The notes beneath the pieces are model-generated. The model was given only the letters and a program-made list of their open reading frames with translations. It was not told the origin of the DNA and ran no database searches. The translations under genes were made by a program, and so were the position numbers. Positions 26,639 through 40,434 of a stretch of 64,000 bases of DNA are shown piece by piece. Every line of letters starts with the position of its first letter. The first letter of the stretch is position 1. Source of the stretch: Eledone cirrhosa (taxonomy: Eukaryota); contig OZ024742.1 in the NCBI GenBank assembly GCA_964016885.1, positions 320,416,001 through 320,480,000 on the forward strand. The letters are read 5' to 3'.

Positions 26639-27107
26639 CAATATTAAATAAATGGAAAACTATATTTATAAAACCATATTTATTTCATTATATATATTTC
26701 GGGGATATCATATTAACAATATGCTATGCCTTCATCAGACAAAATACAATATAAACAGTTTTATAGATAAATATATTCGACTTACCGTAATAAACATCAA
26801 CTTCATTTGAAGAGGTTTACGCTAGCAGTAATAAACATCAACTTCAAATGAAGTTGATGTTTATTACGGTATGTCGAATATATTTATCTATAAAACTGTT
26901 TATATTGTATTTTGTCTGATGAAGGCATAGCATATTGTTAATATGATATCCCCGAAATATATATAATGAAATAAATATGGTTTTATAAATATAGTTTTCC
27001 ATTTATTTAATATTGTAAATATACTCCAAATATTTGTCGAGTGCTTTTATATCAGTTATAAATATTTACTAGTTGTAACCCAACAATTTTAAATATAACT
27101 TTACATG
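26639..27107 (+). mobile_element. Palindromic hammerhead element, family H1, copy 1
   Basis: Inverted arms at about 26639-26806 and 26848-27015, plus a ~90-nt unpaired 3' tail. Hammerheads at 26908-26973 (+) and 26681-26746 (-). Confidence 0.85.
26908..26973 (+). ncRNA. Minimal type I hammerhead ribozyme
   Basis: tattttgt-CTGATGA-aggcatagcatatt gtt aatatgatatcccc-GAAA-tatata-ta-atgaaata. Stem I is 8 bp with two G-U pairs. Confidence 0.8.
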
Positions 27108-27747
27108 TATATATATATATATATAAAATATATATATATAAAATATATATATATATAATATATATATATATATATATATATATATATATAAAATATATAT
27201 ATATATATATATAAAATATATATATATATATAAAATATATATATATATATAAAATATATATATATATATATATAAAATATATATATATATATATATAAAA
27301 TATATATATATATATATATATAAAATATATATATATATATAAAATATATATATATATATATAAAATATATATATATATATATAAAATATATATATATATA
27401 TATATAAAATACATATATATATATATATATAAAATATATATATATATATATAAAATATATATATATAAAATATATATATATAAAATATATATATAAAATA
27501 TATATATATATATATATATAAAATATATATATATAAAATATATATATATATATATATAAAATATATATATATATAAAATATATATATATATATATATAAA
27601 ATATATATATATATATATATATATAAAATATATATATATATATAAAATATATATATATATATATAAAATATATATATATATATATATAAAATATATATAT
27701 ATATATAAAATATATATATATATATATAAAATATATATATATATATA

Positions 27748-28216
27748 CAATATTAAATAAATGGAAAACTATATTTATAAAACCATATTTATTTCATTAT
27801 ATATATTTCGGGGATATCATATTAACAATATGCTATGCCTTCATCAGACAAAATACAATATAAACAGTTTTATAGATAAATATATTCGACTTACCGTAAT
27901 AAACATCAACTTCATTTGAAGAGGTTTACGCTAGCAGTAATAAACATCAACTTCAAATGAAGTTGATGTTTATTACGGTATGTCGAATATATTTATCTAT
28001 AAAACTGTTTATATTGTATTTTGTCTGATGAAGGCATAGCATATTGTTAATATGATATCCCCGAAATATATATAATGAAATAAATATGGTTTTATAAATA
28101 TAGTTTTCCATTTATTTAATATTGTAAATATACTCCAAATATTTGTCGAGTGCTTTTATATCAGTTATAAATATTTACTAGTTGTAACCCAACAATTTTA
28201 AATATAACTTTACATG
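27748..28216 (+). mobile_element. Palindromic hammerhead element H1, copy 2 (identical by eye to copy 1, offset 1109 bp)
   Basis: Hammerheads at 28017-28082 (+) and 27790-27855 (-). Confidence 0.85.
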
Positions 28217-28822
28217 TATATATATATATATATAAAATATATATATATATATATATATAAAATATATATATATAAAATATATATATATATATATATATAA
28301 AATATATATATATATATATATAAAATATATATATATATATATATAAAATATATATATATATATATATAAAATACATATATATATATATATATAAAATATA
28401 TATATATATATATAAAATATATATATATAAAATATATATATATAAAATATATATATAAAATATATATATATAAAATATATATATATAAAATATATATATA
28501 AAACATATATATATATATATAAAATATATATATATATATATATAAAATATATATATATATATATATATATATATATAAAATATATATATATATATAAAAT
28601 ATATATATATATATATATAAAATATATATATATATATATATAAAATATATATATATATATATAAAATATATATCTATATATAAAATATATATTTATATAT
28701 ATAAAATATATATATATATATATAATATATATATATATATATAAAATATATATATATATATATAAAATATATATATATATATATATATATATATATATAT
28801 ATATATATATATATATATATAT

Positions 28823-36338: not shown

Positions 36339-38285
36339 CGATATTAAATAAATGGAAACTATATTTATAAAACCATATTTATTTCATTATATATATTTCA
36401 GGGATATCATATTAACAATATGTTATGCCTTCTTCAGACAAAATACAATATAGACAGTTTTATAGATAAATAGATTTGACATACCGTTCAACATCGACTT
36501 GTATTTGAAAAAGTTGATTTGGCAGTGAAAAATTGTAAACAGAAAGAAAGAAAGAAAGAAAGAAAGAAAGAAGGAAAGAAAGGAAGAAAACGTAGAAAAA
36601 GAAGAAAAAGAAGAAATGCATGCAACAAAATAGAGAGATGGAAAGATAGATAAAGAGAAGAACTTCATGTAAAGAAACAGAGAGAGATATATAGAGAGAG
36701 GAAATAGATAGAGATAGATATATATAGAGAAAAGTAGGTAGTTGAACGACGTATCAATGATACATTTATTTATTTAGCTCTAGTATTAATGTAAGGGAGA
36801 TATAAGTGGTTAGGAAAGAAACCAGCCGTTATATAGAGAGAAAAATGAAAAGTAACCAGACATAGGCGAGGCTGAATTTAAAAACCCTATGTTTTAATGT
36901 AGAAATATTAGTTCGTATAAAAACCAGGCACTATAATGTAAATATCAGTATTCCTGAATGAGACACGTATCTATAATGTGTGAAAAGTAATGATCTTATG
37001 TCTAGTTTTAAAAATTCATATGTTTATATGATAACTACAAACATCGATGTGAATTTACGTGATCAACTCTGCAAACCCCTATTTCACACGGAGAACATTC
37101 TCATTGTGCTATAAAAATTTAAATATACATATATGTGTATATATACACATATATATAGAGTCTATATTAATTTTAACAATACTATTCTTGTCTTTACTCT
37201 ACATGATTATGTATCAAGCAGAAATAGAGGACAGATTTCAATATATTAATAAAAATATCAGAAACAAAAACAAAAAATAATAATAATAATAATAATAATA
37301 AACAAATAAATAAAATAGAAAACTATAGATAGAAACTAAAGACAAGAATAGTATTGTTAAAATTAATATAGACTCTATATATATGTGTATATATACACAT
37401 ATATGTATACTTAAATTTTTATAGCACAATGAGAATGTTCTCCGTGTGAAATAGGGGTTTGCAGAGTTGATCACGTAAATTCACATCGATGTTTGTAGTT
37501 ATCATATAAACATATGAATTTTTAAAACTAGACATAAGATCATTACTTTTCACACATTATAGATACGTGTCTCATTCAGGAATACTGATATTTACATTAT
37601 AGTGCCTGGTTTTTATACGAACTAATATTTCTACATTAAAACATAGGGTTTTTAAATTCAGCCTCGCCTATGTCTGGTTACTTTTCATTTTTCTCTCTAT
37701 ATAACGGCTGGTTTCTTTCCTAACCACTTATATCTCCCTTACATTAATACTAGAGCTAAATAAATAAATAAATAAATGTATCATTGATACGTCGTTCAAC
37801 TACCTACTTTTCTCTATATATATCTATCTCTATCTATTTCCTCTCTCTATATATCTCTCTCTGTTTCTTTACATGAAGTTCTTCTCTTTATCTATCTTTC
37901 CATCTCTCTATTTTGTTGCATGCATTTCTTCTTTTTCTTCTTTTTCTTCGTTTTCTTCCTTTCTTTCCTTCTTTCTTTCTTTCTTTCTTTCTGTTTACAA
38001 TTTTTCACTGCCAAATCAACTTTTTCAAATACAAGTCGATGTTGAACGGTATGTCAAATCTATTTATCTATAAAACTGTCTATATTGTATTTTGTCTGAA
38101 GAAGGCATAACATATTGTTAATATGATATCCCTGAAATATATATAATGAAATAAATATGGTTTTATAAATATAGTTTCCATTTATTTAATATCGTAAATA
38201 TACTCCAAATACTTGTTGAGTGCTTTTATATCAGTTATAAATATTTACTAGTTGTAACCCAACAATTTAAATATAACTTTCCATG
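36339..38285 (+). mobile_element. Long palindromic hammerhead element H1, copy 3 (about 860-bp arms)
   Basis: Arms 36339-37196 and 37337-38195, ~140-nt spacer, ~90-nt 3' tail. Hammerheads at 38088-38153 (+; CTGAAGA..tGAAA) and 36380-36445 (-). Confidence 0.9.
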
Positions 38286-40013
38286 TATATATATATATAT
38301 ATATAAAATATATATATATATATATATAAAATATATATATATATATAAAATATATATATATATATATAAAATATATATATATATATATAAAATATATATC
38401 TATATATAAAATATATATATATATAAAATATATATATATATATATAATATATATATATAAAATATATATATATATATAAAATATATATATATATATATAA
38501 TATATATATATATATATAAAATATATATATATATATATGATATATATATATATATATATATAAAATATATATATATATATATATGAAATATATATATAAA
38601 ATATATATATATATATATATAAAATATATATATATAAAATGTATATATAAAATGTATATATATATATAAAATATATATATATATATATAAAATATATATC
38701 TATATATAAAATATATATATATATAAAATATATATATATATATATAATATATATATATATATATAAAATATATATATATATATATAATATATATATATAT
38801 ATATATATAAAATATATATATATATATATATAAATATATATATATATATATATAAAATATATATATATAATATATATATATATATATATATATATATAAA
38901 ATATATATATATATATATATATATATAAAATATATATATATAAAATAAATATATATATATATAAAATATATATATATATATAAAATATATATATATATAT
39001 ATATAAAATATATATATATATATAAAAATATATATATATATAAAATATATATATATATATATAAAATATATATATATATAAAATATATATATATATATAT
39101 ATAAAATATATATATATATAAAATATATATATATATATATATATAAAATATATATATATATATATATATAAAATATATATATATATAAAATATATATATA
39201 TATATATATAAAATATATATATATATAAAATATATATATATATATATATATATATATAAAATATATATATATAAAATATATATATATATATAATATATAT
39301 ATATATATATATATATAAAATATATATATATATATAAAATATATATATATATATATAAAATATATATATATAAAATATATATATATATATATAAAATATA
39401 TATATATATATATATAAAATATATATATATATATATATAAAATATATATATATATATATATAATATATATATATATATATATATATATAAAATATATATA
39501 TATATATATATATATAAAATATATATTATATATATATATTTTATATATATATATATTTATTTTATATATATATATATATTTATTTTATATATATATATAT
39601 ATATATTATATATATATATATATATATTTATTTTATATATATATATATATTTATTTTATATATATATATATATATATTATATATATATATATATATATAT
39701 ATTTTTTATATATATATATATTATATATATATTTTATATATATATATTATATATATATATATATATATATTTTATATATATATTTATATATTATATATAT
39801 ATATATATATATATTTTATATATATATTTATATATATATATATATATATATATATATTTTATATATATATATATTATATATATATTTGATATATATATAT
39901 TATATATATATATATATATATTTTATATATATATATATATTATGTATATATATATATTATATATATATATATATATTTTATATATATATATATATATATA
40001 TTATATATATATA

Positions 40014-40434
40014 CAATATTAAATAAATGGAAAACTATATTTATAAACCATATTTATTTCATTATATATATTTCGGGGATATCATATTAACAATATGCTA
40101 TGCCTTCATCAGACAAAATACAATATAAACAGTTTTATAGATAAATATATTCGACATACAAAATGAAGTTGATGTTTATTACGGTATGTCGAATATATTT
40201 ATCTATAAAACTGTTTATATTGTATTTTGTCTGATGAAGGCATAGCATATTGTTAATATGATATCCCCGAAATATATATAATGAAATAAATATGGTTTTA
40301 TAAATATAGTTTTCCATTTATTTAATATTGTATTTAATATTGTAAATATACTCCAAGTATTTGTCGAGTGCTTTTATATCAGTTATAAATATTTACTAGT
40401 TGTAACCCAACAATTTTAAATATAACTTTACATG
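40014..40434 (+). mobile_element. Palindromic hammerhead element H1, copy 4
   Basis: Same left end and tail as copies 1-3 but a different inversion junction. Hammerhead at 40223-40288 (+), with an inverted copy at about 40055-40120. Confidence 0.85.

Follow-up and report, generated by a model that had tools for sequence, protein, structure and literature searches.

The window analysed here, 64,000 nt of the Eledone cirrhosa contig OZ024742.1 with positions counted from its first letter, contains four palindromic insertions (E1 to E4, starting at 26639, 27748, 36339 and 40014) flanked by TA repeats. They are very probably truncated copies of a Penelope-like element (PLE) of the Hydra type, and we hold with moderate confidence that each such insertion arose when a single sense RNA was reverse-transcribed twice from primers at the target. 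The common architecture described in an earlier note on this DNA is present in all four. Starting from (TA)n, the inverted arm begins with its terminus c(a/g)atattaaataaatgg and is followed by a variable junction, a sense arm and a tail that passes into (TA)n. The tail, previously put at ~90 nt, measures 91 nt. The two ends are termed the short end (S) and the long end (L), and the arms leading to them the S and L arms; numbers prefixed with L denote loci elsewhere in the genome.

In E1 the S arm (26639–26829, minus strand) is an inverted copy of the pseudo-long terminal repeat (pLTR), bounded by an initiator-like A(+1) (26829) and the S terminus (26639), and is 98% identical to the element at L034. 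It includes a hammerhead motif (26681–26746, minus strand) with CTGATGA at 26738. The junction (26830–26841) is a 12-nt additional inverted piece between the arms, identified from its sequence and mapping. Logan contigs do not reach across this junction, and among the sequencing runs searched no RNA data set was listed as containing the sequence. The L arm (26842–27108, plus strand) comprises the pLTR with hammerhead and tail, terminates in CATGT and is 99.6% identical to L034. Its minimal type I hammerhead (26908–26973, plus strand) has the palindrome ATATATAT as stem III and a predicted cut after 26965. The tail (27016–27106, plus strand), ending CAT/CATGT|(TA)n, lies between two putative start sites of reverse transcription; in full-length copies it runs on into the 5′ untranslated region (UTR) and open reading frame (ORF). 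E2 (27748–28217) is an exact duplicate of E1, identical at 470 of 470 nt including the junction, at a period of 1,109 bp, and is either a local duplication or an assembly repeat. The four copies noted earlier are therefore present, but they represent only three independent insertions. E3 belongs to subfamily B and is larger than the short unit, with arms that reach ~1 kb into the parental 3′ UTR. Its S arm (36339–37325, minus strand) reaches from the element end ~1,080 nt into the 3′ UTR and is 95% identical to the element at L032, and its L arm (37337–38286, plus strand; 97.6% to L032) carries a hammerhead at 38088–38153 with the core CTGAAGA. E4 consists of an S arm (40014–40159, minus strand; 98.7% to L034) and an L arm (40161–40435, plus strand), flanked by a 14-nt target-site duplication of interrupted TA repeat (40000–40013 paired with 40436–40449, both plus strand). 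A 12-nt tandem duplication (40320–40343) is located exactly at the S site inside the E4 L arm, and L126 is apparently similar.

The parent element was found in twenty genomic stretches picked for long spacing or single 24-mer matches. It is ordered pLTR, ORF, AT-rich 3′ UTR and pLTR; the L034 copy is 4,119 nt long and the L032 copy 3,772 nt. E1, E2 and E4 are 96–99.6% identical to the end of L034, and E3 is 95–98% identical to the last kilobase of L032. The continuation from the tail into the ORF leader has 203 exact matches genome-wide. The absence of an ORF stated in the earlier note thus applies to the copies E1 to E4 but not to the family, whose parent encodes 737 amino acids. The kinship with PLEs proposed there is borne out, since the arms match the 3′ end of a PLE bearing an ORF elsewhere in the genome, and the autonomous partner sharing the same terminus exists in L034 and L032, with reverse transcriptase (RT) and GIY-YIG-like motifs. 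A separate non-autonomous or retrozyme-like family is not upheld: the arms are 5′-truncated pieces of the autonomous PLE, their lengths range from ~40 nt to more than one unit, and the junctions differ among short insertions.

The 737-aa ORF contains YRDD at 352 and the GIY-YIG-like VY-x13-YVG at 616. The RWK motif is present as RWR at 37 (R for K), and is accompanied by DKT at 118, the linker motif CxCX5C as CNCRDRSKC at 596, and C-terminal CxxC and CxH motifs as CDLC at 694 and CKH at 721; the linker motif CX2-5CxxC is absent. The ORF has 136 homologues, the named ones being only from the octopod Argonauta (37–41% identical), and in look-alike clusters of the ESM Atlas the RVT_1 and GIY-YIG families occur in 18–77% of members. 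The apparent order of RT followed by GIY-YIG in a single ORF is that of endonuclease-positive PLEs, as is the layout, with pLTRs from partial tandems, an inverted 5′-truncated copy and a one-sided tail; the pLTR also has the expected hammerhead, as judged by the motif and covariation in stem II. RWR, DKT, CxCX5C, CxxC, CxH and insertion into (TA)n would together place the element in the Hydra clade, a group with hammerheads and (TA)n targets whose members include an octopus family and a Repbase entry with an inverted, hammerhead-bearing copy (PMC8557442). Less favourable to this assignment, Pfam gave no significant family for the ORF (nor for five relatives), a PDB profile search gave only a retron RT (E 0.019), and the Hydra-clade placement is by motifs. 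A PDB search by sequence gave nothing below E 0.6. A non-LTR retrozyme was considered and rejected, as the copies are dispersed head-to-head and continuous with an ORF-bearing element, and not tandem. A non-autonomous PLE derivative with one fixed structure at unrelated sites was also rejected, as no two of 44 short insertions are identical except E1 and E2. Further Hydra-like families have ORFs in L292, L294 and L298.

The insertions have two fixed ends 91 nt apart, and each uses one of each. Exact matches to the S end followed by TATATAT number 5,099 genome-wide and those to the L end 4,754, so that both ends occur in a ratio of ~1:1; read-through at the S anchor gives 4,945. The subfamilies of E1 to E4 amount to about 5,000 insertions. 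Among 79 paired termini 76 are S with L, three are short-short and none is long-long, and about a sixth of pairs span 454–476 bp. The TA targeting claimed earlier is well supported. Of the 109 termini at loci selected by hammerhead only, 100 keep the TA phase at 10 or more of 12 bases, compared with 756 of 10,287 background 12-mers (7.3%). While 59 of the 76 S and L pairs lie in pure TA, the remaining 17 are informative for target duplication, which is 13 bp in nine, 11, 12 or 14 bp in four, and without an exact match in four. The target duplication is about 13 bp, with 2–3 nt of ambiguity because TA or TAT follows both ends within the element. Folding of the 91-nt tail was not beyond that of shuffled sequences (z −0.15 to −0.98).

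From 212 termini, 185 arms could be mapped, leaving 14 very short L arms, tandem junctions, poorly anchored arms and E2. The arms are joined 5′-to-5′ at variable points; one junction recurs in L113 and L133 with the arm types swapped. The 5′ ends are concentrated at an initiator-like sequence, TTTTC|ACTGC. Of 131 arms reaching it, 42 end at +1 to +10, 12 of them exactly at the A, compared with 7/138 and 4/89 in the neighbouring bins. Both arm types stop there (29/79 S, 13/52 L), from which we infer run-off at the 5′ end of the RNA at TCA(+1)CT. A G that could derive from a cap precedes +1 in four of 12 arms, three of them explainable by the partner arm. Rotifer pLTRs likewise contain TCACT, described there as initiator-like (PMC3846280), and an internal promoter is known in Penelope (PMC2377424).

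The two arms of an insertion belong to the same subfamily, and 45 of 50 pairs have no more than two differences in 155 nt; the five discordant pairs have L arms shorter than 130 nt. The nature of the template is suggested by L040 (G000:C1:52535341-52539266), the sole clearly hyper-edited insertion in 190 overlapping loci scanned. In the element sense it contains 233 A>G and 6 T>C changes. The 5′ neighbour of the edited A is biased (T 33/109, A 23/155, C 6/69, G 2/46), which we take to reflect ADAR. The arms have 70 of 71 changes in common, the tail has none, and an edited 41-mer occurs in the genome only within those two arms. L040 suggests a sense template and a single molecule. Beside stem I, 7 of 57 insertions, differing in background, carry a recurrent A>G, always in both arms and never in one alone.

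In the proposed mechanism the GIY-YIG domain would nick both strands of the (TA)n target with an offset of ~13 nt, so that 3′ TA overhangs remain. Each of these would prime reverse transcription, helped by the TA or TAT after both start sites, with the two reactions beginning at the S and the L site, respectively, and both copying toward the 5′ end of the RNA. The two complementary DNAs (cDNAs) would then be joined by microhomology and filled in, to give a palindrome with a one-sided tail. The common form of ~460 bp would arise by priming in the 5′ pLTR, with both cDNAs likely running off at the transcription start TTTTC|A(+1)CTGC. In twin priming by the L1 retrotransposon a single RNA is the template for cDNAs primed from the two 3′ ends of the target, and these cDNAs are joined by microhomology; there, however, the second primer lands internally at no fixed position and the arms are free of overlap, whereas here the starts are fixed and the arms overlap. 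An in vitro precedent is provided by a Poseidon PLE that extends both DNA strands after cutting them and initiates at two sites flanking its tail, with unprocessed RNA as template (PMC11167929). The complete account is put forward tentatively, as having slightly less than an even chance. By this account both arms are made from one sense RNA by an asymmetric RT-endonuclease with a 13-nt (TA)n stagger, two fixed sites and run-off at the pLTR start, and the palindromes become germline double-stranded RNA substrates of ADAR, one of them fixed in ribozyme-dead form in a second active PLE.

The later fate of the palindromes was seen when a T>C control pattern unexpectedly retrieved copies edited along one continuous strand through both arms. 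These share flanks and are located in the 3′ UTR of a second PLE, whose RT is 46% identical. Their junction has 40 matches in the genome. In 31 copies from 30 loci, A>G changes affect 540 of 1,457 A cells (37%) in one paired arm and 469 of 1,388 (34%) in the other, compared with none of the 870 loop cells and 6 of the 876 tail cells. This confinement to the paired stem implies that such palindromes form hairpins in RNA molecules whose sequence later passes into the germline genome. The editing destroys the ribozyme cores, GAAA and ATATATAT both being altered in edited passenger copies. An independent case, L259, is edited at 30/79 and 26/70 positions in the arms and 0/34 in the loop, and sits in the 3′ end of a long interspersed nuclear element (LINE). 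A transcribed inserted palindrome would fold as a long hairpin and serve as an ADAR substrate. Seven neighbouring pairs of the host PLE bear on arm concordance: four are identical at the variable sites, compared with 1.5% between loci, and in the other three one arm is truncated and misaligned. This concordance fits one RNA and one source locus alike.

Several observations accompany these. The second Hydra-like family carries the edited, ribozyme-dead palindrome at ~40 places (L251-L281, L293, L297, L311-L316), and its own hammerhead-like motif has a ACGATCGT palindrome. At L259/L303 (G000:C2:369869610) the palindrome lies downstream of a 1,212-aa LINE ORF and is edited on the LINE sense strand. 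In L282:3925-4330, tail-to-tail PLE copies of different subfamilies have A>G changes on the same strand and by eye resemble a third case.

The hammerhead motif was found in every arm of E1 to E4, and so on both strands, as described in the earlier note. It comprises an 8-bp stem I (TATTTTGT/ATGAAATA, with two G-U pairs), the CTGAWGA core, stem II, GAAA and the 8-nt palindromic stem III. An exact 24-mer from this region has 4,872 matches in the genome and its reversed control none, and thus the sequence is not due to chance; the matches are mostly minus-plus pairs 0.1–6 kb apart. A wider pattern with the same stem III and many stem II sequences has 21,026 matches. In 16 subfamily variants, author-chosen from the first 30 loci of the wider-pattern matches and the window, stem II shows two-sided changes at seven of nine pairs, and 95.3% of cells pair; the core was preset by the search pattern, so these variants say nothing independent on its conservation. 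An Rfam scan returned no hammerhead hit with E ≤ 1, and the predicted fold of the monomer is not more stable than those of shuffled sequences (z 0.79). The dependence of the palindromic stem III on a dimer is supported by predicted energies of −0.9 kcal/mol for the monomer and −14.4 kcal/mol for the dimer, although the unconstrained dimer adopts a non-hammerhead structure (−20.9 versus −14.4 kcal/mol). The suggested action in trans with TA-repeat RNA is unsupported, because a UA repeat is unable to form stem I (+1.6 versus −1.5 kcal/mol). By these models, the hammerhead would be an ordinary PLE dimer-type ribozyme. Only 2 of the 185 mapped arms have 5′ ends near the ribozyme cut, so the cleavage product is apparently not the template for insertion, in agreement with the Poseidon PLE (PMC11167929). 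A transcript through both arms of E1 is predicted to form a single long hairpin in which both ribozymes would be buried, its energy (−273 kcal/mol) being far lower than those of the hammerhead folds.

A number of points weigh against two primings on one RNA. In the sequence examined 47 termini have no partner, and part of the paired sample was picked on its S end. The transcription start at +1 is one that we infer from DNA only; six arms end at −1 to −14, and there is a smaller excess of ends at +41 to +60 (21/166). The argument for one RNA is based on one hyper-edited insertion, L040, in which the L arm is the longer, so that fold-back or later gene conversion from arm to arm would mimic the identity. 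The recurrent A>G site may have been inherited from several master copies. The 31 passenger copies share 28 fixed sites, with 16 variable, and are therefore related and not independent. In the Poseidon system priming occurs at RNA sites non-homologous to the cut DNA (PMC11167929), in contrast to the pairing of 2–3 nt of TA envisaged here.

Two alternatives retain some standing, and both are unlikely. In the first, the element is the same but its inverted arm is a product of self-priming, in which a cDNA or antisense template folds back on itself, as has been proposed for rotifer PLEs (PMC3846280). Short palindromes and microhomology at the junctions (GCTAGC, and the 12-nt insert of E1) are as this would predict, and fold-back would also yield identical arms like those of L040. 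However, fold-back of an L-primed cDNA is limited to its own 5′ reach, and it fails as a general rule because the S arm extends further in 19 of 42 mapped pairs (L further in 9, equal in 14). An S-primed cDNA has no tail to copy, and an antisense template predicts T>C in the element sense, where L040 (n = 1) shows A>G. In the second, which we judge no more probable, twin priming uses two RNAs that come from one source locus and are held together by a dimeric protein. Two long overlapping arms are common (e.g. 2,958 and 3,414 nt) and on one RNA would require strand displacement, and the Poseidon protein is predicted to dimerise (PMC11167929). Against this, hyper-editing is specific to the molecule, and the changes common to the L040 arms are found in no other genomic copy.

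It is very unlikely that the palindrome is itself a self-propagating, non-autonomous retrozyme-like family that possibly cuts TA-repeat RNA in trans. The narrow size class of 454–476 bp and the 40 loci with one junction would be consistent with it, and the latter set gave a first impression of such a family. That impression was rejected, since the palindrome at these loci is carried as a passenger in the 3′ UTR of the second, autonomous PLE, which explains their common flanks; one locus with the same junction (L310) arose by a separate insertion and is unedited. The junctions of free short copies vary, and there are no tandem hammerhead arrays. Together with the failure of UA repeats in stem I, this largely refutes the retrozyme-like reading. 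It is barely credible that the palindromes are fold-back artefacts of sequencing or assembly beside TA arrays, for although the window arrays are long and irregular and E1 equals E2, read fold-back cannot yield fixed asymmetric ends, 13-bp duplications and stem-confined editing of copies that have passed through RNA.

Returning to priming at two fixed sites on one sense RNA, the element type, hammerheads, (TA)n targets and inverted copies are already published, while the reading of a mechanism from many copies is new. Hydra-1_Obim and Penelope-13_HM, as described in PMC8557442, likewise have a C-terminal endonuclease, RWK-like, DKT, CxCX5C, CxxC and CxH motifs, a pLTR hammerhead and (TA)n targets, and Penelope-13_HM has an inverted 5′-truncated copy with a hammerhead on each strand. 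By eye Hydra-1_Obim differs in its protein and hammerhead, stem III being ATATATAT here and ACCA-A-TGGT there, and the unit of 3.8–4.1 kb compares with generally <3 kb in the Hydra clade (PMC8557442). The accessible part of PMC8557442 gives no duplication length or end stoichiometry for the clade. The Poseidon PLE of the green anole (PAc; PMC11167929) is alike in its two internal RT starts bounding a tail, cutting and extension of both strands, AT-rich targets and an insertion for which hammerhead cleavage is not needed. It belongs to another clade, and its 30–40-nt tail is inside the ORF, whereas the 91-nt tail here is upstream; as far as the available text of PMC11167929 extends, it contains no demonstration of one-each site use per insertion or of arms from a single RNA. 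The Penelope families of Adineta vaga (PMC3846280) also have an inverted tail-less pLTR, palindromic junctions, an initiator-like TCACT and duplications of 8–10 bp, likened to those here; self-priming on an antisense template was proposed for them, whereas a sense template with two primers is favoured here. Non-LTR retrozymes (bioRxiv 10.64898/2026.07.22.740005) and the minimal hammerheads of PLEs (PMC4209133, PMC6765202) resemble the present motif in being type I, pLTR-derived and dimer-dependent, with a palindromic stem III and an extra base between positions 9 and 10.1. Retrozymes differ in being tandem repeats with a hammerhead per unit, in contrast to the dispersed head-to-head truncations of a coding element found here. 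A literature search that covered few subscription journals, with Repbase and Dfam outside it, returned no PLE end stoichiometry, 13-bp duplication or ADAR-edited genomic copies.

Other elements lie nearby in the window. A subfamily C copy (13920–14208, plus strand) in TA repeats is 77% identical, with the same hammerhead core and stem III and another stem II. An inverted-repeat element in microsatellite DNA (20478–21377) has a hammerhead-like motif in each arm, with CTGATGA at 21103 (plus) and 20752 (minus), an ACTAGT palindrome and a GUA site. On the minus strand, the tract at 33585–35000 is probably the 3′ UTR of another PLE family; it is AT-rich, ends in a TA repeat and has a hammerhead-like motif with a GUU site at its end (33606–33673). 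Multi-kilobase (TA)n arrays at 27108–29827, 35107–36338 and 38286–41347 are interrupted by AAAA every 19–25 nt, the interruptions changing to TTTT near 39530; they may be biological or due to read errors. The stretches 22060–24050, 29850–33300, 43133–44500, 45667–47292, 56977–58485 and 50659–53274 hold several fragments of LINE RTs and an LTR-type pol ORF of 871 codons, none of them connected with E1 to E4.

The origin of the tandem and inverted structures of PLEs was left unresolved in PMC8557442 and PMC11167929, and the choice between sense and antisense template was left undecided in PMC3846280. The present reading supplies numbers that can be tested in vitro, namely a stagger of ~13 nt, two starts 91 nt apart used 1:1, a predicted transcription start and a ribozyme-cut end that is not used. 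An RT that is specific to (TA)n and integrates via two strands would also be an interesting enzyme. The edited copies serve as natural barcodes for the strand and number of templates, and indicate that PLE palindromes fold and undergo editing in the germline. If the complete account is true, the fossil record of these insertions would settle how PLE inverted repeats are formed, and RNA editing would have been written back into the genome through retrotransposition.

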